A DNA stretch of 39,376 bases from Collinsella sp. (GCA_014871605.1 WGSQ01000001.1:1-39376); one strand, 5' to 3'; shown: positions 17,899-37,908, numbered from the stretch's first letter. Program-made: numbers and translations. The notes: generated from the letters alone by a model not told the origin.

Positions 17899-18549
17899 CT
17901 AGCGCACGGCCTTGACCGCCGCCGTCAGATCGAACAACGAATCGAGCACGGCCTCGCAGCCATCTACCACGTCCTGCGGCAGCGGCACGATATCGGGAAC
18001 AGCAAAGACATGGCAGCCGGCCGTGATGCCCGAGACGCAGCCGTTGCGCGAATCCTCGACCACAGCGCATTCCTCGGGGGCAAAGCCCGCGCGCTCGCAG
18101 GCAAGCAGATACATCTCGGGATCGGGCTTGCCGTGCACGACGTCCTCGCCGCAAGTCACCGTCTCAAACTTGTTAAAGAGGCCGACCATCTTAAGGTTGC
18201 GCTCGGCCGTAACGAGGCGCGACGACGTTGCAAGGCCCACGTGATAGCCCGCAGCCAGCAGGTCGTCTATGCACTCGGCAGCGCCGGCCTTAAGCTCCAG
18301 ATCGGTCTTGACCATCTCGTCGCGAATCTCCTTGTGGCGATGATAGAGCGCCTCGGCGGTTTCTCTGCTGCCGTAATGCGCCTCAAGGATGTCCATGACA
18401 TCGGGCAGTGTGCGACCGATAAACTGATGAATCAGCGTGTCATCAATCGCAACGCCCAGCTCAGCAGCGGGCGCTTTCCATGCCTTGATGCCCAGACGCT
18501 CGGTATCGACCAGCGTTCCGTCCATGTCAAAAATAACAGCCTTAATCAT
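17899..18549 (-). CDS. HAD-family phosphatase (beta-PGM/CbbY-like)
   Basis: VIFDMDGTLVDTE, ATSS, GKPDPEMY, VVEDS. Start at MIKAV after GGAGAGGGG. Confidence 0.9.
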   Translation of the reverse strand: MIKAVIFDMDGTLVDTERLGIKAWKAPAAELGVAIDDTLIHQFIGRTLPDVMDILEAHYGSRETAEALYHRHKEIRDEMVKTDLELKAGAAECIDDLLAAGYHVGLATSSRLVTAERNLKMVGLFNKFETVTCGEDVVHGKPDPEMYLLACERAGFAPEECAVVEDSRNGCVSGITAGCHVFAVPDIVPLPQDVVDGCEAVLDSLFDLTAAVKAVR

Positions 18550-18716
18550 ATCGGTCCCCTCACCGGATTGCATTACTGCCACTCTACCGCACTTTACAAA
18601 CTTGTATATAACGTATATAGCATATTGCACTTTCGTTACATAGATAGAAGTCTTATGACAAGCGGCTCGGTAGGATTATAGTTTTCGACCGAGTACTCAA
18701 TGGTAAGGATCGTTTC

Positions 18717-19891: not shown

Positions 19892-21592
19892 CTACTTCTT
19901 CCGATATCGGCGGTTACGGCTCGTCGATGAACCCATTACTTCGATGAGCCCTTTATCCGCCATTTTTGGCAGATGGTAACGGACGGACGAAATTTTGACC
20001 CCCGATGCAACCGCTATTTCTCGCGCCGTCATATCCACTTCGGCGCTGAGAGCCTCCAGGATCCTATCCGCCGTCGAAGTTGACGACTCTCTGTTCATAT
20101 CGATAATTTCAAACGTGTCATTGCCGCATTTTGACAGGACATGTTTATCCACAAGGTCCCCGCAGATCAGGCGAATGTCATCCGAATCCCACTTCAGGGC
20201 CTCTCGTATTTTTTGAACATCGCATACGCACCCATGCTCCCGCATAAACATGAGCAATGTTTCCTCGCGATCTGTCAGCTCGGTGCCCACATGGCTCTGA
20301 ATCCACGTGCGGTTTTCAGCAAGCTCCGCCCCGTGCCGGGAAAGCAGCACCGTAAACGAATCGGCCTTAACGATAAATTTCGGCCTGCCAAGCGAACGAG
20401 ACTCCATCTCGCGAATCATAGCCGGGATACCAGATCCCTGGCTTTCCGCAACGGCCCCCTCGGCATGCTCTAACGGCGTCGCCCCCATTAGGCTCATAAG
20501 CTTTGGATTTCGGCAGCGCGATTCCCCATCTGCAAGATTGTCCACCGTCTTTCCGCCCCAAAGCCCGCCAGGGTTTTTGATCTCTATTCTGTCTGGATAG
20601 ATATCGACACTCACGGCCTGCCCCACAAACATGGGCGAATATTCTCGATGGATGCAGGCATTTGCCAAGGCCTCGCGCAAAACCTCCTGGGGAACTTCCC
20701 AATCCTCCCTTCTGCCAGCGCCTTGCACTATCGCCGCTTTGCGCAAGTTTCGTCCAATCGCGGCAAGAGCATCTTCGATGCAGGCCGGAATCGGGCCATC
20801 GCACAACTGGCGGTCAATAAACCGGGGTTGCCCGGGCGCAGATTTTTCCACATCGGAATGAACGGCGACATCGATTATCAGTTTGGGATAGAACTGCTGG
20901 GGGTAAATTCCCGCCGACAGAAGCCCTGCGAGCTTCACGGCACCATCCTTTGTAGTGATATTGAGTCTGACCAGCTGCTTTTCCAGCGTATCGGCCCCGC
21001 GCAAAACGCGCGGGGTCTGCAGCCGGCGATTTGCGATAATAGACCGCACGACATCTGGATCCAAATCCTCGACTGTTGCCTCCGAAACCACCGTGCCGTC
21101 TGCATCGCTCGGAAGCAACGCACTCTGCAGCTCATATAGCTCAGCGGGTGACATCTTGATATCTTTATCATCCACGCGCTTGTAGCTACCGTTCTGCACG
21201 CCGCGCGCGCCGATATAGCAAGGCTTCGCTTTAAGCTCAAGTTCAAAGATGCGCACCAGAAGCACCTGGAGCCCGTCGACCTCGCCTCGATCAAGCTCGT
21301 ACCGCGGCGCATGGGTCACCACTGCCGCCGAGCCCCCGTCTCCGATACCCGAAACAAACTGATCGCGTACCCTATCGATAGCAAAGTTAGCCGAAGGAAC
21401 AAATCCTTCGGCTTCGTTCAGGCCCAAAATAATGAGCCCACCCGCAGTGTTCGCAAAAGCGCTCACTGTCTCCCATACGTCTGCGCTCAATTTACTCGTG
21501 CAGGCTTTAACTTCTACCGATGCGTCATCAGTCCCCCGCCTGCGAAGGCGCTCAACGATAAGGCCAAGAGGTTCATCCAGCAGCATTGGCAT
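19892..21592 (-). CDS. Schlafen/AlbA_2-like domain + HATPase_c_4-like domain + wHTH protein
   Basis: VEVK..WETVSAFANTAGGLIILG (AlbA_2-like); LREALANACIHREY, IEIKNPGGL, RNPKL, GSGIP (HATPase_c_4-like); C-terminal MTAREIA..G..SSVRYHL wHTH. Confidence 0.82.
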   Translation of the reverse strand: MPMLLDEPLGLIVERLRRRGTDDASVEVKACTSKLSADVWETVSAFANTAGGLIILGLNEAEGFVPSANFAIDRVRDQFVSGIGDGGSAAVVTHAPRYELDRGEVDGLQVLLVRIFELELKAKPCYIGARGVQNGSYKRVDDKDIKMSPAELYELQSALLPSDADGTVVSEATVEDLDPDVVRSIIANRRLQTPRVLRGADTLEKQLVRLNITTKDGAVKLAGLLSAGIYPQQFYPKLIIDVAVHSDVEKSAPGQPRFIDRQLCDGPIPACIEDALAAIGRNLRKAAIVQGAGRREDWEVPQEVLREALANACIHREYSPMFVGQAVSVDIYPDRIEIKNPGGLWGGKTVDNLADGESRCRNPKLMSLMGATPLEHAEGAVAESQGSGIPAMIREMESRSLGRPKFIVKADSFTVLLSRHGAELAENRTWIQSHVGTELTDREETLLMFMREHGCVCDVQKIREALKWDSDDIRLICGDLVDKHVLSKCGNDTFEIIDMNRESSTSTADRILEALSAEVDMTAREIAVASGVKISSVRYHLPKMADKGLIEVMGSSTSRNRRYRKK

Positions 21593-21756: not shown

Positions 21757-21792
21757 CGTGCGCGACCTCTATAAGCACGGGCTCCACTCTTT

Positions 21793-21845
21793 AACCTGCC
21801 AAAAAGGGACAGGTTTATTTTGGCAGGTTTTATCTGGGGAAACGC
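21793..21845 (+). repeat. REP-like long element, copy C
   Basis: 12-bp stem AACCTGCCAAAA/TTTTGGCAGGTT around AGGGACAGGTTTA, plus tail TTATCTGGGGAAACGC. Confidence 0.85.
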
Positions 21846-21924: not shown

Positions 21925-22377
21925 CTAGTCTTCGAGTCCGCTATTGATGAGCTCCGCAATCTCAACGGGATCGGTGCTCGCGCGCACCTTGTCACGGAAG
22001 CCGGCGTCCATCAGCATCACGGCAGCCTTGGAGAGCAAGCGCAGGTGCGTGGTTCCTGCCTCGCCGGCAGGCACGTACAGCGCGAGCGCAACATCGACGG
22101 GCACACCATCGAAGCTCGGCCATTCAACGGGCTCGACCAGCTTAAGCACGGCAACGCCCGGCGTGTGGATAGCATCGCTTTTGGCATGTGGAACGGCAAA
22201 ACCGGCGACAAGGCCAGTCTCGGCCTCGTTCTCGCGAGCCATGAAGGCAGTCTCTACGGCAGATGCGTCGTCAGCAAAGCCGAGCTCGACGGCCTGATCG
22301 GACAAATAATGCAGGGCATCCTCGCGCGAGGCGGCGGTATACCCTATCGTCACTTGGTTGGCAGATACAAATCCCAT
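21925..22377 (-). CDS. PTS fructose-family EIIA component
   Basis: ARENEAETG..FAVPHAKS (phospho-His), HLRLLSK. Confidence 0.9.
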   Translation of the reverse strand: MGFVSANQVTIGYTAASREDALHYLSDQAVELGFADDASAVETAFMARENEAETGLVAGFAVPHAKSDAIHTPGVAVLKLVEPVEWPSFDGVPVDVALALYVPAGEAGTTHLRLLSKAAVMLMDAGFRDKVRASTDPVEIAELINSGLED

Positions 22378-22388
22378 GGAAACCTTCC

Positions 22389-23327
22389 TTACAACACAGA
22401 CCTGACCGCAACTTCGATGCCGTCGGCGTCCAAACCGTACTTGTGCAGCAAATCGACCGCAGGGCCGGACTCGCCATACACATCGCGCACGCCGACGCGA
22501 CGCATCGGCACCGGATACTGCTCCGCTAGCACCGAGGCAACGGCCTCGCCAAGACCGCCGATAATCGAATGCTCCTCGGCAGTGACCACGCGACCGGTCT
22601 TCTTGGCGCTGGCTACAACCAGGCGTTCGTCGAGCGGCTTGATCGTATGCATGTTGATGACCTCGGCATCGATGCCATCGGCAGCGAGCGCCTCGGCAGC
22701 CTCAAGCGCCTCGGCGACCATAAGGCCACAAGCGATGATGGTCACATCGGACCCCTCGCGCACGACCACGCCGCGACCAATCTTGAACTCATAGTCCTCG
22801 CAGTCGTTGATGACCGGTGTTGCCAGGCGGCCGAAGCGCATGTAAACCGGGCCCTCAAACTCATAGGCGGCGCGCACACAGGCACGAGCCTCGACGTCGT
22901 CGGCGGGAACGACCACCGTCATACCCGGAATCGTGCGCATGAGTGCGATATCCTCGCAGCACTGGTGCGTGGCGCCGTCCTCGCCCACCGAAATGCCGGC
23001 ATGAGTAGCGCCAATCTTGACGTTGAGGTGCGGGTAGCCGATGGAATTGCGGACCTGCTCGTAGGCGCGACCGGCGGCAAACATCGCAAAGGTGCTCGCA
23101 AAAGCAACGCGGCCCGTGGTCGCGATGCCGGCGGCAAGACCCATCAGGTTGCTCTCGGCAATGCCGGCGTCGCAGAAGCGCTCAGGGTGCGCAGCCTTAA
23201 ACTTACCGGTCTGCGTGGCGGCGGCCAGGTCGGCATCGAGAACCACAAAGTCATCGCGCTCATTGCCCAGCTCGACAAGTGCCTCGCCATAGCTAACGCG
23301 CGTGGCGACTTTCTTGACGTCTGCCAT
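22389..23327 (-). CDS. tkt: Transketolase, C-terminal subunit (pyrimidine-binding and C-terminal domains)
   Basis: LDADL, GIAESN, GEDGATHQ, PVYMRFGR, EEHSIIGGLG. TAATG coupling with the upstream gene. Confidence 0.93.
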   Translation of the reverse strand: MADVKKVATRVSYGEALVELGNERDDFVVLDADLAAATQTGKFKAAHPERFCDAGIAESNLMGLAAGIATTGRVAFASTFAMFAAGRAYEQVRNSIGYPHLNVKIGATHAGISVGEDGATHQCCEDIALMRTIPGMTVVVPADDVEARACVRAAYEFEGPVYMRFGRLATPVINDCEDYEFKIGRGVVVREGSDVTIIACGLMVAEALEAAEALAADGIDAEVINMHTIKPLDERLVVASAKKTGRVVTAEEHSIIGGLGEAVASVLAEQYPVPMRRVGVRDVYGESGPAVDLLHKYGLDADGIEVAVRSVL

Positions 23328-24157
23328 TAGAGCTCCTCCCCTGCTGCTGCGAGCTCGGCCATGGCCTGCTCAAACTGTTCATCGTTGGGTGCCTTGCCGT
23401 GCCAGCCCACCTGGTTTTCCATAAAGGAGACGCCCTTGCCCTTCACCGTCTCGGCGATAATGGCCACGGGCGAGTCGCTCACTTTGCGGGCCTCGGCAAA
23501 GGCGGCGGCAATCTGCGCCATGTCGTTACCGTCGGCGAGCTCGATCACATGCCACTTAAAGGCGCGGAACTTGTCAGCGAGCGGCATGGCCGAGTTGACT
23601 TCATCGATCGTGCCGTCAATCTGCAAGCCGTTGTGGTCGACGACGGCAACAAGATTGTCGAGCGCATGGTTGCCGGCGAACATGGCCGCCTCCCACACCT
23701 GGCCTTCCTCGCACTCACCGTCGCCCAGCAACGTGTAGACACGGTAGCCGTCGCCCCAGTGCTTAGCGGCAAGCGCCATTCCAACTGCAGCAGAGATGCC
23801 CTGACCGAGCGATCCGGTGGACATATCGATGCCAGGGGCGTCGTTCATGTTGGGATGGCCCTGCAGTCGGCTGCCAATATGACGGAGCGTCTCGAGCTCT
23901 TCGACGGGAAAATAGCCGCGATTTGCCAACACCGAATACAGGCCCGGCGCCGCGTGACCCTTGGAGAGCACAAAGCGATCGCGATCGGCCTTGTGAGGGG
24001 CGGCAGGATCGATATTCATTTCCTCAAAGTACAGATACGTCATGATGTCGGCAGCACCGAGCGATCCACCCGGGTGTCCCGACTTGGCCGCGTGAACCGC
24101 AGTCACGACACCCTTCCTGACCTCATTGGCGACCTTCGCCAGCTCCTGGTTGGTCAT
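23327..24157 (-). CDS. tkt: Transketolase, N-terminal (TPP-binding) subunit
   Basis: SGHPGGSL, RDRFVLSKGH, LQGHP, STGSLGQG, TPP motif GDGECEEG..N. Start at MTNQEL. Confidence 0.93.
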   Translation of the reverse strand: MTNQELAKVANEVRKGVVTAVHAAKSGHPGGSLGAADIMTYLYFEEMNIDPAAPHKADRDRFVLSKGHAAPGLYSVLANRGYFPVEELETLRHIGSRLQGHPNMNDAPGIDMSTGSLGQGISAAVGMALAAKHWGDGYRVYTLLGDGECEEGQVWEAAMFAGNHALDNLVAVVDHNGLQIDGTIDEVNSAMPLADKFRAFKWHVIELADGNDMAQIAAAFAEARKVSDSPVAIIAETVKGKGVSFMENQVGWHGKAPNDEQFEQAMAELAAAGEEL

Positions 24158-24220
24158 ACGAATTCCTCTCTTGAGAACAACCCCGGCACCGGATGACGCG
24201 ATGCCGGGGCAATCCACTCG

Positions 24221-24904
24221 TTAAGCCTGAGCGACGACCTTCTGCCAGTCAGCCTCAAAAGAGGCGAGGCCCTGGTCGGTCAGCGGATGATGCAGGCACT
24301 TCTTGAGAGCGGCCATGGGCACGGTCGCAATATCGGCACCGAGTAGCGCGGCCTGGGTCACGTGGTTGGGCGTACGAACCGAGGCGGTGATGATCTCGAC
24401 GGTGTCGTCGACGTTCTTGCCCGTCCAGTCGTAGTTCTTAATGCAGGTCACGACGTTGTCGAGCTGCGAGATACCGTCCTCGGCGATGTCATCGAAACGA
24501 CCGACAAACGGGCTGATGTAGCGAGCACCGGCATTGGCGGCCATAAGGGCCTGCGTCGGCGAGAAGACGAGCGTCATGTTGACGCGCACGCCAGCATCGG
24601 CCAGTGCACGGCAGGCGGCAAGGCCGGCCTCGCACACGGGAAGCTTGACCACGATGTTGGGGGCGAGGGCGGCAAGGCGCTTGCCCTCCTCGATCATACC
24701 CTCGGCAGTGGTAGCGGTAGACTCGGCGGAAACGGGCAGGCCCTCGCAGAGCTCGGCAATCTTGAGCATATGCGGCTCAAAGTCGGCAAGCTTGCCGCCG
24801 GTCTTGGCGTACAGGGACGGGTTGGTGGTAACACCGGCCAGGCAGCCCCAGCTCTTGGCCTCGGCGATCTCGTCCAGATTGGCAGTATCGATAAAGAACT
24901 TCAT
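24221..24904 (-). CDS. tal: Short (MipB/TalC-type) transaldolase
   Basis: FFIDTA, GVTTNPS, VVKLP (Schiff-base Lys), NMTLVFS. VSAE and SPFVGR carry Glu/Phe, which favours transaldolase over FSA (Gln/Tyr). Confidence 0.88.
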   Translation of the reverse strand: MKFFIDTANLDEIAEAKSWGCLAGVTTNPSLYAKTGGKLADFEPHMLKIAELCEGLPVSAESTATTAEGMIEEGKRLAALAPNIVVKLPVCEAGLAACRALADAGVRVNMTLVFSPTQALMAANAGARYISPFVGRFDDIAEDGISQLDNVVTCIKNYDWTGKNVDDTVEIITASVRTPNHVTQAALLGADIATVPMAALKKCLHHPLTDQGLASFEADWQKVVAQA

Positions 24905-25029
24905 GGTGCAAACTCCTTCGAAGGAATCCAAAACTCAAAAAATAGGACAAAGGGGATGTCCCTTTGTCCTATGTGCCGGGCCTGCGGCTGGGACATGCCC
25001 CAGGCCCGGCGTCGTGTAGGAAAAGCTAC

Positions 25030-26304
25030 TTAGTCCTCGAGAGCCTTCTCGATGCGGCTCGTGACGCCCTTGAGGTTAAGACCGACGACGTACTGCTTGA
25101 TCGGGCGCTTGATGTGCTCGATCACAAAGCGCTTGCCGTCGATGTCCTGGGCAGCGAGGTTGCGATAGAGCTTCTCGACCTGCTCCTTGACCTCGGGATC
25201 GTTGAACGCATAGTGGCCGGAGACATCTAGGATCTTCAGGCTGAGCTCATCGTCGGCAAGGATGTCATCGACCTGCAGGTTGACGTCGTCGCCAGTCATC
25301 CACTTGCGCCAGCGCTCGGTCTTGATAGCCTTGACCAGCAGCGTGTGATACAGGTCGGAGGGGTCATCGCACAGACCGTTGTCGACCAGGATCTGCTCGG
25401 TGGCGCAGAGCTTGAGGTAGGCGCGGGTCTCCTCGGTGCCATACTGCGGAGCGACGTTGGAGGCGGTCACGTGTGCCGGGATGTGCTCGAGCAGCGTCGC
25501 GTCGTCCAGATAGTCGGCGTTGTGCTCCTTCAGGCCCACGCCATAGCGCTTGGCCATATCGGCAAGCTCGCGGGCGTTCTTGAAGTTGTAGTGACCGACC
25601 TGCTCCGTCCAGCGGGTAAGGGTGCCGGTCTGGCCGACGATAAAGGTGGGCATGGGGCAGCCGCGCTTCTCGAGCTCGGGCTGCAGCTGAGAAATGAACT
25701 CCTCGTACTTATCGGTAGAGGTCAAGCCGCCATTGGTCTCCTCGGTACCGACCTCATAGGCGACCTCGGGCAGGTTATGCTCGCGACGGTACTGCTCAAG
25801 GTAGTCGATAAGATCGATCGTGCGGCGAAGCACCACGTCGAGCGGAATAACCTTGCCGATCTGATAGGGGTCCTTGGTGGGGTCGACCATCAGCAGGTCA
25901 AAGCCCGCCTCCATGTCGGCGACGAAGGACTTGCGGGCGAGCTCCATGGCCTCGTCCTCGGGCAGGTGGGCGTTACGCTCCTCGTCGCGCTGCCACGGAC
26001 CGCCGTGATCGCGGCACAGGTAGTACGGACCGGTGTAACCCACCTCGTCGGCAACCTTCTTGATGTCGGCGGCAAAGCGCGTCTGGTCCCAACCGTTGAC
26101 GTAGCCGGCGCCCATCTCGTCCATATCGACCTGGTTGCGGCTGGCGATAAACATGGGCGGGAAATCCTCGTCCTTGGCAAGCTCGAACACGGCCTGAATC
26201 AGGTTGGGGCTCATGGGGCCAATGCCGACCATGGTTGCGTGATCGCCGCTATCCTGCAGCTTGAGCATGCCCTGAACGGCCTGACGGATGGTGAGGTTGG
26301 ACAT
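25030..26304 (-). CDS. GatZ/KbaZ-family protein (putative ketose-phosphate C4-epimerase)
   Basis: IASRNQVD..GY, RDHGGPW, AGFDLLMVD, YEVGTEE, KEHNADY, NVAPQ. AGGAG RBS. Confidence 0.8.
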   Translation of the reverse strand: MSNLTIRQAVQGMLKLQDSGDHATMVGIGPMSPNLIQAVFELAKDEDFPPMFIASRNQVDMDEMGAGYVNGWDQTRFAADIKKVADEVGYTGPYYLCRDHGGPWQRDEERNAHLPEDEAMELARKSFVADMEAGFDLLMVDPTKDPYQIGKVIPLDVVLRRTIDLIDYLEQYRREHNLPEVAYEVGTEETNGGLTSTDKYEEFISQLQPELEKRGCPMPTFIVGQTGTLTRWTEQVGHYNFKNARELADMAKRYGVGLKEHNADYLDDATLLEHIPAHVTASNVAPQYGTEETRAYLKLCATEQILVDNGLCDDPSDLYHTLLVKAIKTERWRKWMTGDDVNLQVDDILADDELSLKILDVSGHYAFNDPEVKEQVEKLYRNLAAQDIDGKRFVIEHIKRPIKQYVVGLNLKGVTSRIEKALED

Positions 26305-26448
26305 TTTGTTCTCCTTCTCCAGAGGATTTTTGACAAAAGTTCCCTGGGACCCAGATGTGGGCCCTATCAGTACGGATGGATTTTGTTGTGTAGGGGCGGT
26401 TGTGCGGAGTCAAATCCATCCCTCCGCACAACCGGAGTCCTTAAAGGT

Positions 26449-27921
26449 TTACTTGGCCTGCTTATCGAGCGTGGGCTTCATGGCAATCAGGATTGCAGCG
26501 GCGACCACGGCGCCAATCACGATGTCCAGGCAGAACAGCGCGACGTTGTTGGTGGCAAGGGCGACGATAAAGCCACCGTGCGGGACGTAGCAGTCGATGC
26601 CCTGGAAGGCGGCAAGTGCCGCACCCACGGCAGAGCCGATGCAAATGCCGGGCAGGGTGTGACCGAGGTCCTTGACCGCGAAGGGGATAGCGCCCTCGGT
26701 AATACCGATGCAGCCCATGAACAGCGCGGAGATGCCCATCTGGCGGTCAGCGTCATCGAACTTGTTCTTGGCGATGAGCGCAGCGAGGCCACAGGCGATC
26801 GGGGGAACGGCGACGGCGACGCGGAACATACCGTTAGGACCGTAGATACCGGAGGCCATGATGGCCATGGTGAAGGTCGAGGCGGTCTTGTTGATGGGGC
26901 CACCCATATCGAACGCGGTCATAACGCCAATGACCAGACCCAGGACAACTGCGGAACCGCCCTGCAGGCTGCCGAGCACGCCGGTGAGCCAGTCCATCAC
27001 AAAGCCAAGCGGCGTGGCCAGGATGTAGATATAGGCCATGCCCAGGACAAGCGAGGTCAGAATCGGGATGATCAGGATGGGCATGATGGTCTGGATGGTG
27101 TTGTTGACCTTCCAGGTCTTCATCCAGCGGACAAAGTAGCCGCAGATGACCGCCATGATCATGGCGCCCAAGAAGCCGGTCGAAACGCTGTTGCCGTTAG
27201 GGGTAACGACTGCGTTATTGACCAGGTAGCCCAGGACAAAACCGGGGGCGAGCGCGGGCTTGCCGGCCATCGAGTAGGAGATGTATGCCGCAAGCACCGG
27301 GATCATCATGGAGATGCCGGCCATGCCGATGGTGTTAAGGCTCACCATCAGCGGGTTCGTAACCTCCATGCCGTTGGCGCCGGCGGTACCGGATGCCAGC
27401 GAGAAGGCAAGAAACACGCCGCCGATAACGACAATGGGGATAAAATAGGAAACGCCGGTATTGAATGCATTGAGCAGCGTCTTGCCAGGATCGGCAAAGA
27501 TAGACTGCTTGGACGCCGGTGTCGGGGCCTGCGGGGCAGCGGAGACGGCCTTCTTCTCTGCCTTGGCCTCGGCCTTGGGCGCGTCAACGGCGCCACCCGT
27601 CGCCTTGATGATCTCAATGGCCTGGTCGATGATCTTTACCGGATCGGCGATTACATCAGAGGTGCCGACCTTCAGGAACTTGCCCTCGGCCATCTTCTGC
27701 TCAAAACGGTCCTCGTTCTCGACACCCACGTCGACGGACTCCAGGACCAGGTCGGCGGAGTCCACGTCTTCCTGCGTGAGCTCATTCTCGATACCCAGGC
27801 CACCCTGAGCCTCGACCTTGCACTCGATGCCACGGGCGGCGCATTCATCCTGAATCGCCTTCTGGGCCATATACGTGTGGGCGATACCCACAGTACAGGC
27901 GGCAACGCCTACGATCTTCAT
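26449..27921 (-). CDS. PTS fructose-family EIIBC component
   Basis: EIIB AACTVGIAHTYMA..KVEAQG; Ala/Pro/Lys-rich linker; EIIC GVSYFIP, FDMGGPINK, GITEGAIPFA, PHGG. Start at MKIVG. Confidence 0.93.
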   Translation of the reverse strand: MKIVGVAACTVGIAHTYMAQKAIQDECAARGIECKVEAQGGLGIENELTQEDVDSADLVLESVDVGVENEDRFEQKMAEGKFLKVGTSDVIADPVKIIDQAIEIIKATGGAVDAPKAEAKAEKKAVSAAPQAPTPASKQSIFADPGKTLLNAFNTGVSYFIPIVVIGGVFLAFSLASGTAGANGMEVTNPLMVSLNTIGMAGISMMIPVLAAYISYSMAGKPALAPGFVLGYLVNNAVVTPNGNSVSTGFLGAMIMAVICGYFVRWMKTWKVNNTIQTIMPILIIPILTSLVLGMAYIYILATPLGFVMDWLTGVLGSLQGGSAVVLGLVIGVMTAFDMGGPINKTASTFTMAIMASGIYGPNGMFRVAVAVPPIACGLAALIAKNKFDDADRQMGISALFMGCIGITEGAIPFAVKDLGHTLPGICIGSAVGAALAAFQGIDCYVPHGGFIVALATNNVALFCLDIVIGAVVAAAILIAMKPTLDKQAK

Positions 27922-28084
27922 TGCTTCCCTCTTTTCATAGAGTTGCGTGCGCAAGACACCGTTTGCGGAGGCCTCCGGAGCATCCCCTGCCGTTTGGACT
28001 TGCTGTCTTTTCGACAAGAACAATATAGGTGCTCGTTTTTCTTAATGCCAGCTTATTTCGGTAAACGCGCAGGTCAGAGCGTTG

Positions 28085-28111
28085 GTTATGCGATTTAGTT
28101 ATGCGTTTAAC
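28085..28111. promoter_or_regulatory. Tandem LacI-type operator candidates
   Basis: GTTATGCGTTTAAC (28098-28111; GTTA-N2-CG-N2-TAAC) and the overlapping GTTATGCGATTTAG, between the divergent PTS operon and lacI. Confidence 0.55.
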
Positions 28112-28336
28112 CAAAAATGAATCCTGCGATTTTGCCCTCGATTTCAAAAGTCAAGAAGTATTTGATTTTCTCGGTAGACGGCAGATGCGCATGCCGGTCA
28201 CAAATTTCGACCCCACCCGTATGCCGCATTTGTTGCATACTCATATGAAAGGAAAAAGCCGCTCACCGAAGCGTATCCTTCACCAAGACTCAAAGTCATC
28301 ATGTTGGAAAATGCTCATCTGTCGGAAGGAGTCGCT

Positions 28337-29347
28337 GTGGCAAAACAGCGCGTTACGATCGCAGACGTCGCTCGAGAGGCGGGAACCTCGACGGCAAGCG
28401 TCTCGTATTACCTCAACGACAAACGAGAAAAGCTTAGCGAGAAGACGCAGAACAAAATCGCGCGCGTCATTAAGGAACTCGGATACGTTCCCAACGCCCA
28501 AGCGCAGACGCTCACCGGCAAGCAAACCCACGTCATTGCCATCATCATTTTGGATAACACCAACAAATGGGCGGGGCTCGTTCTCAATGGCATGGAGCAG
28601 GTCATGCTCCCCGCGGGCTACCAGACGGTCGTTTGCACGAGCAACTTTAACCCCGAGACCGAGCTCATGTACGTCGACAAGATGCTCTCGCTGGGCGTCG
28701 ATGGCTTTATCATCCAGCCCACGGCAAACTTCAAAGCCGTGCATGACCGCATTAGACGCGCCGGCAAGCCGGTCGTCTTTTTCGATGCGGCCATCTATAG
28801 CCCAGGTACCAGCTGGATCAAAACCAACCTTTACGACGGCGTGTACAACGCCACACAGGCACTCCTCGACGCCGGCTACGAAGATTTCTTTTCCATTGCC
28901 GCCAACATGACCGAAATGCGCACCCGCATGGAGCGTTTTCAGGGGTATGCCGAGGCGCTGGCAGCGAACGGGCAGCTCTACAAAGCGATTCCCATCGATC
29001 ACAACAAGCCGTCAATCAACGAGCTCACCGAATACTTTAAATTCAAGTTCAATCCCGCCAAGCGAACCCTTATCTTCGTGCAAAATCAGTGGGCACTTCC
29101 CCGTGTCTACAAGGCCCTCCAGCCAATGGCCCATCTGCTTCCGCAGCAAATCGGCCTTTTGGGACTCAACTGCGAAGACTGGACTAATCTCACCACACCG
29201 ACCGTCTCCACCATCATCGAGCCCGTCGACCAAGAAGGTCGCGAAGCAGCCGAGATGCTGCTCGCCCTACTTGACGGAAGCAGCGAACCCGGCGAGCAGC
29301 GCATTCTCGAGTGCAAGCTCAACTGGCTCGACTCCACCTCGATCTAG
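28337..29347 (+). CDS. LacI-family regulator, divergent from the PTS operon
   Basis: VTIADVAREAGTSTASVSYYLN..GYVPNAQAQTL. GTG start after AAGGAG. Confidence 0.93.
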   Translation: MAKQRVTIADVAREAGTSTASVSYYLNDKREKLSEKTQNKIARVIKELGYVPNAQAQTLTGKQTHVIAIIILDNTNKWAGLVLNGMEQVMLPAGYQTVVCTSNFNPETELMYVDKMLSLGVDGFIIQPTANFKAVHDRIRRAGKPVVFFDAAIYSPGTSWIKTNLYDGVYNATQALLDAGYEDFFSIAANMTEMRTRMERFQGYAEALAANGQLYKAIPIDHNKPSINELTEYFKFKFNPAKRTLIFVQNQWALPRVYKALQPMAHLLPQQIGLLGLNCEDWTNLTTPTVSTIIEPVDQEGREAAEMLLALLDGSSEPGEQRILECKLNWLDSTSI

Positions 29348-37086: not shown

Positions 37087-37908
37087 CTACATCCCATTGC
37101 GCAGATCGCACACGCCGGCTGCCGCCATCTCGCGCAGCAGCGTCTCGCGGTCGCGCGTCACGATCAGATCCAACGGGAAGTGAATCTCGTCGAGCATCTT
37201 GCGAGCGTAATCGAGCTTACCAATTGCCATGCCAATGTGCGCATCGGTCGAAACGCCAATGCCCACGCCCAGCTCGGCGCAGCGCTCGGCGATCTTGCGG
37301 CATACGGCCCAATGCTCAGTGTCGACACCGTGTTCAAGACTATGGTTGTTGATCTCGATAATCTTGTGCTTGGCCTTAGCCGCCAACAGCACCTCGTCGA
37401 TATCGAACGGCACGCCCGAACGCCCCGTGTGACCCAGCATGAACACCTTGGGGTGCTCCAGGGCATTGATATACATCTCGGTCGTCTGGGCCAGCGTCGC
37501 GCCTTCAGCAATCTGCGGATTATGCACGCTCGCAACCAAATAATCCAAATTACGCGTAACCAAATCGAACAGCGAATGCTGACGGCTGTACGAATCGCCG
37601 GCAATATCGAGCGTGACAGGGGTGTCCTCGCCAAACAGGCTTCCGTCCAGCGAAACGATATCGGCCTCGGCACCACGCAGCACCAGCACGCCGCTCCAAA
37701 TGCGCGGCCAGATATCCTGGTTGATAAAGAACTGGTAACTGCGCAGGTCATTGGGGCAAGCCGTAACCATAGAGCTCAAATGGTCGGCAGATCCGAGCAC
37801 CTGCAGACCACGCTCTGCCGCCCAGTACACATTCTCCTCAATGGTCGAATATGCATGCGCAGAGAACATCGTATGGGTATGAATGTCACAAGAAAGCAGG
37901 TAGGGCAT
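37087..37908 (-). CDS. PHP-domain phosphatase (YcdX-like)
   Basis: DIHTHT..HAYST, ADH, GAEAD, ASVH, EINN, TDAH. Confidence 0.88.
   Translation of the reverse strand: MPYLLSCDIHTHTMFSAHAYSTIEENVYWAAERGLQVLGSADHLSSMVTACPNDLRSYQFFINQDIWPRIWSGVLVLRGAEADIVSLDGSLFGEDTPVTLDIAGDSYSRQHSLFDLVTRNLDYLVASVHNPQIAEGATLAQTTEMYINALEHPKVFMLGHTGRSGVPFDIDEVLLAAKAKHKIIEINNHSLEHGVDTEHWAVCRKIAERCAELGVGIGVSTDAHIGMAIGKLDYARKMLDEIHFPLDLIVTRDRETLLREMAAAGVCDLRNGM

Follow-up and report, generated by a model that had tools for sequence, protein, structure and literature searches.

Which sugar does a bacterium take up with a gene cluster that couples a fructose-type importer to a remote relative of GatZ and to two enzymes of the pentose-phosphate pathway? 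The question is raised by positions 21925–29347 of a 39,376-nt stretch of Collinsella sp. DNA (GCA_014871605.1 WGSQ01000001.1:1-39376), referred to here as the window. Genes on its minus strand encode, in order of transcription, the phosphotransferase system (PTS) protein EIIBC, a GatZ/KbaZ-like protein, a transaldolase (Tal), the N- and C-terminal subunits of a transketolase (TktN and TktC) and EIIA, and a LacI-family gene diverges from them (Table 1). We favour, with slightly better than even confidence, the reading that this is an accessory, LacI-controlled PTS ketose module in which a probable ketose-phosphate 4-epimerase feeds the non-oxidative pentose-phosphate network. An earlier, sequence-only reading had placed the same seven genes here, and had proposed D-mannoheptulose as the substrate; Pfam and NCBIfam searches confirmed the gene list, including the divergent LacI gene.

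The GatZ-like enzyme

The signature protein of the module is a member of PF08013 that stays under the cut-offs of the GatZ/KbaZ equivalog models, namely TIGR02810 (48.4 bits against 568.8), NF011626 (29.8 against 579) and NF012002 (45.8 against 707), and its sequence match to E. coli GatZ (PDB 2fiq) has an E-value of only 0.0015. An AlphaFold2 (AF2) model (predicted local distance difference test 80, predicted template-modelling score 0.85) retrieved 2fiq and 3txv first in Foldseek (E ~1e-14, TM 0.68–0.70, 19–20% identity), with class II fructose- and tagatose-bisphosphate (FBP/TBP) aldolases next. The modelled fold is a class II aldolase-type TIM barrel with a C-terminal helical domain, to which the GatZ structures are predicted to be nearest. 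No class II aldolase of the GatY/KbaY type is encoded beside the GatZ-like gene, the window having no PF01116 gene.

Residues D99-H100, E188 and H261 align (2fiq) to GatZ D87-H88, E171 and H257, which PMC11907403 identifies as catalytic Asp and Zn-binding residues. That paper gives E44, K279 and C20 as hallmark residues of GatZ/KbaZ; these positions are occupied by I53, N283 and G29, so that all three differ. All seven positions are invariant in the clade, both in an alignment of 11 members (11/11) and in one of 14 (14/14) after Listeria, E. faecium and Klebsiella were added. Given that the residues assigned to Zn binding and acid–base catalysis in PMC11907403 are kept, a retro-aldol/aldol (4-epimerase-type) activity is plausible, and so is the 4-epimerase role assigned earlier. 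The catalytic machinery for such chemistry is intact, and the substrate-side residues are in a third state, neither GatZ-like nor like those of fructose-bisphosphate aldolase (FBA).

PTS components and gene content

The importer belongs to the fructose PTS family. EIIBC passes the EIIC model (Table 1) and, narrowly, the EIIB model TIGR00829 (77.7 bits against 76.85), and EIIA falls just short of TIGR00848 and matches PF00359. EIIBC remained under every equivalog cut-off (NCBIfam fructose IIC, fructose IIBC, mannosylglycerate IIABC and fructose-like IIBC), and no EII protein of the window reached the equivalog model of any known PTS substrate. The position of the EIIA gene 3' of tktC ties PTS function to the tal-tkt unit. 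The LacI protein reached no NCBIfam equivalog cut-off; homologues with 46–55% identity (tblastn) occupy the same divergent position at related loci. The divergent region holds a single sigma-70-like site, a weak one (minus strand, 28051–28022), and no clean inverted repeat that could serve as LacI operator was found at 27990–28330.

The sequence-only reading had also relied on what is missing, namely a sugar kinase, a GatY/KbaY aldolase and a dehydrogenase, and these absences held: PfkB, F_bP_aldolase and dehydrogenase families were found neither in the 13 open reading frames (ORFs) scanned at 18.7–32.7 kb nor in another 46 ORFs (130 aa or longer) from the rest of the window. The host assembly (304 contigs, 91% complete) has nine PfkB matches and two class II aldolase (PF01116) matches, all outside the window contig, the latter on contigs C106 and C175. 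Short contigs (C216, C227, C213, C235 and C300) carry further split tkt copies, 78–92% identical to those of the operon and in one case 44%, together with a Tal/FSA-like gene (30% identical) and an EIIA gene (54% identical) beside two PfkB genes. These extra copies stem either from a mixture of strains in the assembly or from sugar clusters that are paralogous.

Distribution of the clade

Homologues of the GatZ-like protein number 2409 at E <=0.001 among 7998 scored. Its own clade is tight (54–100% identical) and spans Collinsella, Olsenella, Firmicutes (including Listeria lmo0634) and plasmids of Enterobacterales; homologues with 66–100% identity occur in Olsenella, Collinsella, Eubacterium, Erysipelotrichaceae, Lactiplantibacillus pentosus and streptococci. 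Among 401 sampled genomes of Actinomycetota, eight match the protein at E <=1e-20, and two of these eight fall in the close clade, the genome of the window and one of ten other genomes of the same genus. The clade is rare and patchy in this phylum. The nearest actinomycetotal homologues outside it are 31–33% identical (tblastn); five of the other six were fetched and four scanned for ORFs. All four loci have a PfkB kinase gene beside the homologue, and most have an SIS gene and an ABC/permease transporter; neither PTS nor Tkt genes were found in these four loci, and a distant Tal was present in one.

Metagenome contigs were scanned with a Listeria-first alignment, by which 533 of 586 stretches were relatives; the best 80 were kept and probed by tblastn with the proteins of the window and of the plasmids. 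In these metagenome loci, a Fru-type EIIC gene lies directly upstream of the GatZ-like gene wherever a flank exists, and the same coupling is seen in the Listeria, E. faecium, Klebsiella and Pantoea records. The conserved core of the module is a regulator, a Fru-type PTS and the GatZ-like enzyme.

In Listeria monocytogenes, the locus consists of a PRD regulator, EIIA, EIIC, EIIB, the GatZ-like protein (66% identical) and a HAD hydrolase, without tal or tkt. We take its GatZ-like gene to be lmo0634 because of the 422-aa length, the product name, the adjoining EII genes lmo0631–0633 and what is presumably the gene order of EGD-e. The product name and length of lmo0634 are given in PMC7054086, and PMC2996996 describes lmo0631–0633 as EII genes of the fructose type that both lineage I and lineage II retain. 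For the non-pathogenic L. innocua, PMC2996996 records lmo0632 and lmo0633 but not lmo0631 (EIIA), and makes no mention of lmo0634. An E. faecium plasmid (65% identical) has a Listeria-type core followed by fsa/tal, a fused tkt (found by tblastn and absent from the PLSDB table) and a HAD gene.

Klebsiella plasmids (54%) carry an EI-like ptsP, IIB, IIC, the GatZ-like gene and a long TalA/B-type tal and, on the divergent side, an HxpA-like HAD-IA gene, a fused tkt and a PHP phosphatase gene. The arrangement on a Pantoea plasmid (54%) is similar, with tkt-rpiB 4.4 kb away. The Klebsiella module was found on IncR and other plasmids, and the copy on pCAV1016-90 (L091, 1–11250) lies directly beside a mer operon and IS26; on these plasmids, the module is metabolic cargo on resistance-plasmid backbones. 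A megablast search with the Klebsiella EIIC–GatZ-like–tal stretch gave no match in E. coli genomes.

A further variant is represented by metagenome locus L119 (3582–12102; also L125 and L128), which has mannose-6-phosphate isomerase, EIIA/B/C, an MtlD-like dehydrogenase, a class II aldolase, the GatZ-like protein (73%) and a split Tkt. This composition suggests that in some hosts a polyol enters the route, perhaps with a GatY-like protein as partner.

Linkage to transaldolase and transketolase

The tal product scores 199–225 bits against the solved transaldolases 1wx0, 3r8r, 1vpx and 3s0c, compared with 124–128 bits against sulfofructose transaldolases and 83–106 bits against entries for fructose-6-phosphate aldolase (FSA). 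Its alignment keeps the Glu of ...VSAE... and the Phe of ...ISPFVGR..., positions at which FSA has Gln and Tyr according to the TacTal/FSA literature. An FSA identity was rejected on these scores and residues, and the gene encodes a genuine short transaldolase, in line with the earlier call. Its true start is probably the ATG at 24904, since the PDB alignments begin at residue 10 and this ATG is preceded by a GAAGGAG stretch, a putative ribosome-binding site. The transketolase is split, with a thiamine diphosphate (ThDP)-binding N domain in one gene and the pyrimidine-binding and C domains in the next; NF004559 (627 positions) is matched over 12–281 by TktN and over 316–623 by TktC, and the tktN stop overlaps the tktC start.

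Association of the module with these enzymes takes several forms: short Tal with split Tkt (the Collinsella type), short Tal with fused Tkt (the E. faecium plasmid, L097 and L118), long TalA/B-type Tal with fused Tkt (Klebsiella), long Tal adjacent with tkt-rpiB 4.4 kb off (Pantoea) and split Tkt without Tal (L119). After dereplication into 24 clusters at 90% identity, 14 had flanks of 2.5 kb or more upstream and 3.5 kb or more downstream; six of these had both Tal and Tkt, one Tkt only and seven neither, and HAD genes were present in seven. A stricter requirement (5.5 kb or more upstream and 4.5 kb or more downstream) left 38 loci, including the window and the plasmid records, and Tal and/or Tkt was found in 14 of them (Tal/Tkt only in 13, HAD only in 12, neither in 12 and both in one). 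Mutual exclusion of HAD and Tal/Tkt was not detected in these 38 loci (p = 1, with only five independent pairs). The linkage is real and convergent, arising in three phyla in non-orthologous forms, yet facultative. The sequence-only reading had made its proposal depend on tal/tkt linkage being conserved among close homologues; the linkage does recur across phyla, but it is absent from Listeria and many close relatives, which in part counts against the proposal.

Transcription of the operon

The 125-nt spacer between the GatZ-like gene and tal folds into two strong hairpins (−62.9 kcal/mol, z = −6.97), and a U-tract follows the second; the genes may accordingly form two transcription units or give one processed transcript; a scan of the whole window with Rfam returned no families. 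RNA depth is not lower downstream of these hairpins, and the spacer clearly does not stop expression of tal, tkt and EIIA.

In ten RNA runs from three studies and with two organism labels, 93–94% of the words of the operon were present. Run X7, a biased choice in that it was picked for containing the stretch, gave a 4656-nt RNA-seq contig over 23360–28015 (tktN to the start of EIIBC) at a depth of 243, compared with 217 for EF-G, and a second contig over 21902–22974 at a depth of 320; the depth of the lacI region was 0–8. In the raw reads of X23 and X24, two runs taken for their species label irrespective of the operon, operon bins average ~0.6 of EF-G bins, and depth over tal-tkt is about two-fold that over the GatZ-like gene. 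In run X5, which has the other organism label, the operon reached 6–77 against 2295 for EF-G. Such expression in laboratory RNA-seq runs that were not selected for the operon weakens the earlier proposal.

The strand signal of X23 and X24 is inconsistent (EF-G ~55:45, an endonuclease gene ~90:10). In these runs, first-mate minus-strand reads dominate over the GatZ-like and EIIBC genes (24912–28068), as they do over neighbouring plus-strand genes; this excess could be antisense transcription, a long lacI leader or a library artefact.

Predicted pathway and alternative explanations

In the reading that we prefer, EIIBC and EIIA would import and phosphorylate a ketose, and the GatZ-fold enzyme would invert C4 of the resulting ketose phosphate by a metal-dependent retro-aldol/aldol reaction. 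The product would be an ordinary 3S,4R ketose phosphate, either sedoheptulose-7-phosphate (S7P) or fructose-6-phosphate (F6P), which the co-encoded Tal and split Tkt would draw into the non-oxidative pentose-phosphate network. We infer epimerase rather than aldolase activity, as well as the phosphorylated carbon and the substrate. Convergent recruitment of Tal and Tkt, recruitment of RpiB in one case, the altered substrate-side residues and the tagatose-negative phenotype of Listeria all point to a pentose-phosphate intermediate as the product, and the simplest such intermediate is S7P made from a ketose with seven carbons. For the versions of the module that bear Tal and Tkt, a C7 ketose such as D-mannoheptulose is our best single candidate, though with low confidence.

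Several observations weigh against this pathway. With all hallmark residues different, the activity of GatZ cannot simply be transferred to the GatZ-like protein, and our literature searches found no assay or growth data for members of the clade. A terminator-like U-tract hairpin parts the GatZ-like gene from tal. Tal and Tkt are missing from 24 of the 38 loci with full flanks. Their presence changes at least eight (Tkt) and at least seven (Tal) times on a maximum-likelihood tree with 81 GatZ-like rows, even between proteins at least 90% identical; given these absences and the many gains and losses, Tal and Tkt are accessory to the module. In relatives of the L119 type, genes for an MtlD-like dehydrogenase and a class II aldolase separate the GatZ-like gene from the PTS, a hint that the route there is wired differently.

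Phosphatases weigh on the same side. A HAD-IA phosphatase gene lies beside the GatZ-like gene in 13 of the 38 loci, with at least five state changes on the tree, and has no role in the model; Klebsiella and Pantoea have a PHP phosphatase and a HAD-IA gene, and L114 a histidine phosphatase, so that phosphatases of three unrelated families recur at this position. The sequence-only reading had claimed to account for every gene, and this recurrent partner is left unexplained by it. Typing of the HAD proteins gave only generic HAD-IA (YjjG/CTE7-like) assignments, with no GmhB-like or other heptose-specific signal, and the small ORFs 3' of the GatZ-like gene in loci without Tal/Tkt match no Pfam family.

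The alternative that survives best, possible if doubtful, is a ketohexose route in which D-tagatose (or psicose or sorbose) would enter as the 6-phosphate and be converted to F6P, with Tal and Tkt co-induced for a phosphoketolase route resembling the bifid shunt. According to PMC11907403, the characterised superfamily members GatZ and KbaZ are 4-epimerases acting on F6P and tagatose-6-phosphate (T6P), converting F6P to T6P in E. coli. The PTS and GatZ-like core alone, as found in many loci, would suffice for such a route. The host genome encodes an XFP phosphoketolase (C210:93-1178, 601 bits) besides phosphofructokinase (PFK) and two class II FBP aldolases, and its sugar catabolism may thus run partly via the phosphoketolase route. 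A host using the bifid shunt needs Tal and Tkt to burn F6P, so a hexulose route has reason to carry both here, and the earlier argument that a tagatose route needs neither is weaker than stated.

The HAD-IA protein of Klebsiella, HxpA-like at 242.4 bits (under the cut-off of 282), also fits a hexulose, as HxpA dephosphorylates T6P in E. coli. Klebsiella and Pantoea, however, attach tal and tkt as well, and there a phosphoketolase route would be unexpected; nor are the GatZ signature residues kept. L. monocytogenes has the module and yet is D-tagatose-negative (PMC4875933, Table 1), which counts against plain tagatose.

The heptulose proposal, in which the PTS would make D-mannoheptulose-7-phosphate, the GatZ-like enzyme would turn it into S7P and Tal and Tkt would assimilate it, we regard as rather unlikely. 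Its stereochemical premise holds as established chemistry, since tagatose is to fructose as mannoheptulose is to sedoheptulose. Assimilation of S7P at catabolic flux needs both Tal and Tkt, which have been recruited repeatedly, in Pantoea together with rpiB. The signature residues, unlike those of the F6P/T6P epimerases GatZ and KbaZ, favour it too, as does the module in tagatose-negative Listeria. We also count in its favour that Listeria, Klebsiella, Pantoea and L. pentosus are plant-associated or gut organisms. The only other bacterial mannoheptulose route in the searchable literature is an in-silico scheme (PMC5507952).

On the other hand, the proposal has to accommodate the 24 loci without Tal and Tkt and the unexplained phosphatase. 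Expression at ~0.6 of EF-G in unselected culture sits poorly with heptulose, an unusual medium ingredient. Fru-family EIIs usually phosphorylate C1 of ketoses, and a 1-phosphate would be useless to Tal or Tkt. That the module is a dedicated C7 ketose route, with phosphorylation at C7, a new heptulose-7-phosphate 4-epimerase, S7P, Tal and Tkt, and with heptitols such as perseitol entering through the L119-type dehydrogenase, is likewise rather unlikely. The gut and plant-associated hosts concerned would be Collinsella, Olsenella, Erysipelotrichaceae, Enterococcus, Listeria (lmo0630–0635) and the Klebsiella and Pantoea plasmids.

It is very improbable that the GatZ-like protein is a true aldolase yielding a C3 unit and an aldose phosphate, for example erythrose-4-phosphate (E4P) from a heptulose-7-phosphate, to be absorbed by Tal and Tkt: the class II aldolase fold, the intact metal/Asp set, the call that E4P would likewise make on Tal and Tkt and a dihydroxyacetone-kinase-family gene ~9 kb away in Pantoea speak for it, but neither the window nor the scanned ORFs of the metagenome loci contain a dihydroxyacetone kinase or triose-handling gene, and the characterised PF08013 members known are epimerases or non-catalytic subunits. 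Equally little credence is due to two unrelated units lying side by side, a PTS and GatZ-like pair and a housekeeping tal-tkt supplying pentose phosphates, which the hairpin between them, the two-fold higher RNA depth over tal-tkt, the high expression without a known inducer and the gain and loss of Tal/Tkt among close relatives would suit, whereas EIIA follows tktC, three phyla have acquired the pairing with Tal and Tkt of different types, further tkt and tal/fsa-like copies exist in the genome and, with the gene in only one of ten other sampled Collinsella genomes, the unit is not core.

Comparison with known systems

E. coli GatZ and KbaZ resemble the window protein in fold (2fiq, TM 0.70), in the Asp-His/Glu/His set and in belonging to a sugar-PTS catabolic cluster. 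They differ from it in sequence (~20% identity) and in their signature residues, which are replaced in the window protein, and the window has neither a GatY/KbaY partner nor galactitol- or GalNAc-type genes. The rhizobial tagatose-6-P 4-epimerase type (3txv, S. meliloti) shares the PF08013 fold, stands alone without GatY and would play the same logical role, turning a rare ketose phosphate into a central one, but is only 19% identical. The Agrobacterium Atu3167 pathway combines ABC uptake with a kinase; our literature search found no paper naming Atu3167. Listeria lmo0630–lmo0635 has an orthologous core, with the 66% identical GatZ-like protein beside a Fru-type PTS, and differs in having a PRD-type regulator instead of LacI and a HAD phosphatase in place of Tal/Tkt; searchable papers give no functional assignment for lmo0631–0635.

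The in-silico mannoheptulose pathway of Leyn et al. (2017; PMC5507952) has two kinases, one of them a ROK kinase, besides an ABC transporter and a LacD-family class I aldolase. It is like the present proposal in treating mannoheptulose by analogy with tagatose and in ending in pentose-phosphate intermediates (E4P), and unlike it in its enzymes, as none of the families named there occurs in the window. Whether a heptulose route through PTS and epimerase was already described had been left open by the sequence-only reading; no such bacterial pathway was found in the searchable literature, which omits most subscription journals. Mannoheptulose-7-phosphate is named there in two papers only, a review on avocado and PMC5507952. 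A rare-ketose route via a GatZ-superfamily epimerase is known as a general kind, whereas the searchable literature contains no description of this clade, of its obligatory coupling to a PTS or of the Tal, Tkt and phosphatase partners that recur with it.

The module is widespread and mobile: it is found in Listeria, in Coriobacteriia and Firmicutes of the human gut, and on plasmids of Enterococcus and Klebsiella. Within the GatZ superfamily, the signature enzyme makes up a separate and strongly conserved clade, and the chemistry of this clade is not readable from GatZ. Identification of the substrate would annotate thousands of genes (going by the number of homologues), explain a lineage-variable PTS of L. 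monocytogenes and add a new epimerase for rare-sugar biocatalysis. Should the heptulose proposal prove true, it would show gut bacterial use of a dietary C7 sugar (the heptulose of avocado) and would give the first pathway of heptulose catabolism in bacteria that is open to experiment; with a hexulose as substrate, the module would be a modest extension of known tagatose-type pathways.

Features of the window and neighbouring elements

Table 1. Features of the proposed ketose module and repeat copies in the window
Feature	Position	Strand	Evidence or remark
LacI-family repressor	28301–29347	+	PF00356 54.9 bits and Peripla_BP_3 60.8 bits; divergent from operon
Promoter/operator region, divergent	28024–28300		between LacI gene and EIIBC
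Fru-family PTS EIIB-EIIC	26449–28023	−	TIGR01427 240.5 bits (cut-off 157.55); PTS_IIB
Divergent GatZ/KbaZ-fold enzyme, module signature gene	25030–26304	−	PF08013 56.2 bits (gathering 26.7), residues 13–389
Structured spacer	24905–25029	−	GC-rich hairpin; 13-bp hairpin with U-tract (24972–24942); putative ribosome-binding site
Short-type transaldolase	24221–24931	−	PF00923 188.7 bits; TIGR00875 248.6 bits (cut-off 245.95)
Transketolase N-terminal (ThDP-binding) subunit	23327–24217	−	PF00456 219 bits; NF004559 329.7 bits
Transketolase C-terminal (pyrimidine-binding and C) subunit	22389–23327	−	PF02779 154.1, PF02780 136, NF004559 296.1 bits
Fru-type PTS EIIA, last gene	21925–22377	−	PF00359 106.6 bits; TIGR00848 102.2 bits (cut-off 103.5)
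Palindromic repeat copy	21794–21844		
Palindromic repeat copy	~15021	−	
Palindromic repeat copy	~19775	+	

Two further genes lie elsewhere in the window, 9–15 kb from the operon and not adjacent to it, and no link to it is claimed: a PHP-domain protein (37087–37908, minus strand), 27.5% identical to the PHP phosphatase of the Klebsiella module, and a HAD_2 hydrolase (17899–18630, minus strand).

An imperfect palindromic repeat of ~30–50 nt has 29 copies in the genome (at most four mismatches), three of them in the window. Thousands of raw RNA-seq reads match this repeat only and then run into unrelated sequence (loose ends at 21792–21845), which marks it as a transcribed REP-like intergenic element of many loci. 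A Schlafen-type gene (AlbA_2/HATPase_c_4/wHTH; 19892–21592, minus strand) adjoins the operon and is flanked by copies of the repeat, with local GC falling to 0.54. This gene is missing from the strain of X23 and X24, the reads of which join 19993 to 21586, with a depth of ~0 between.

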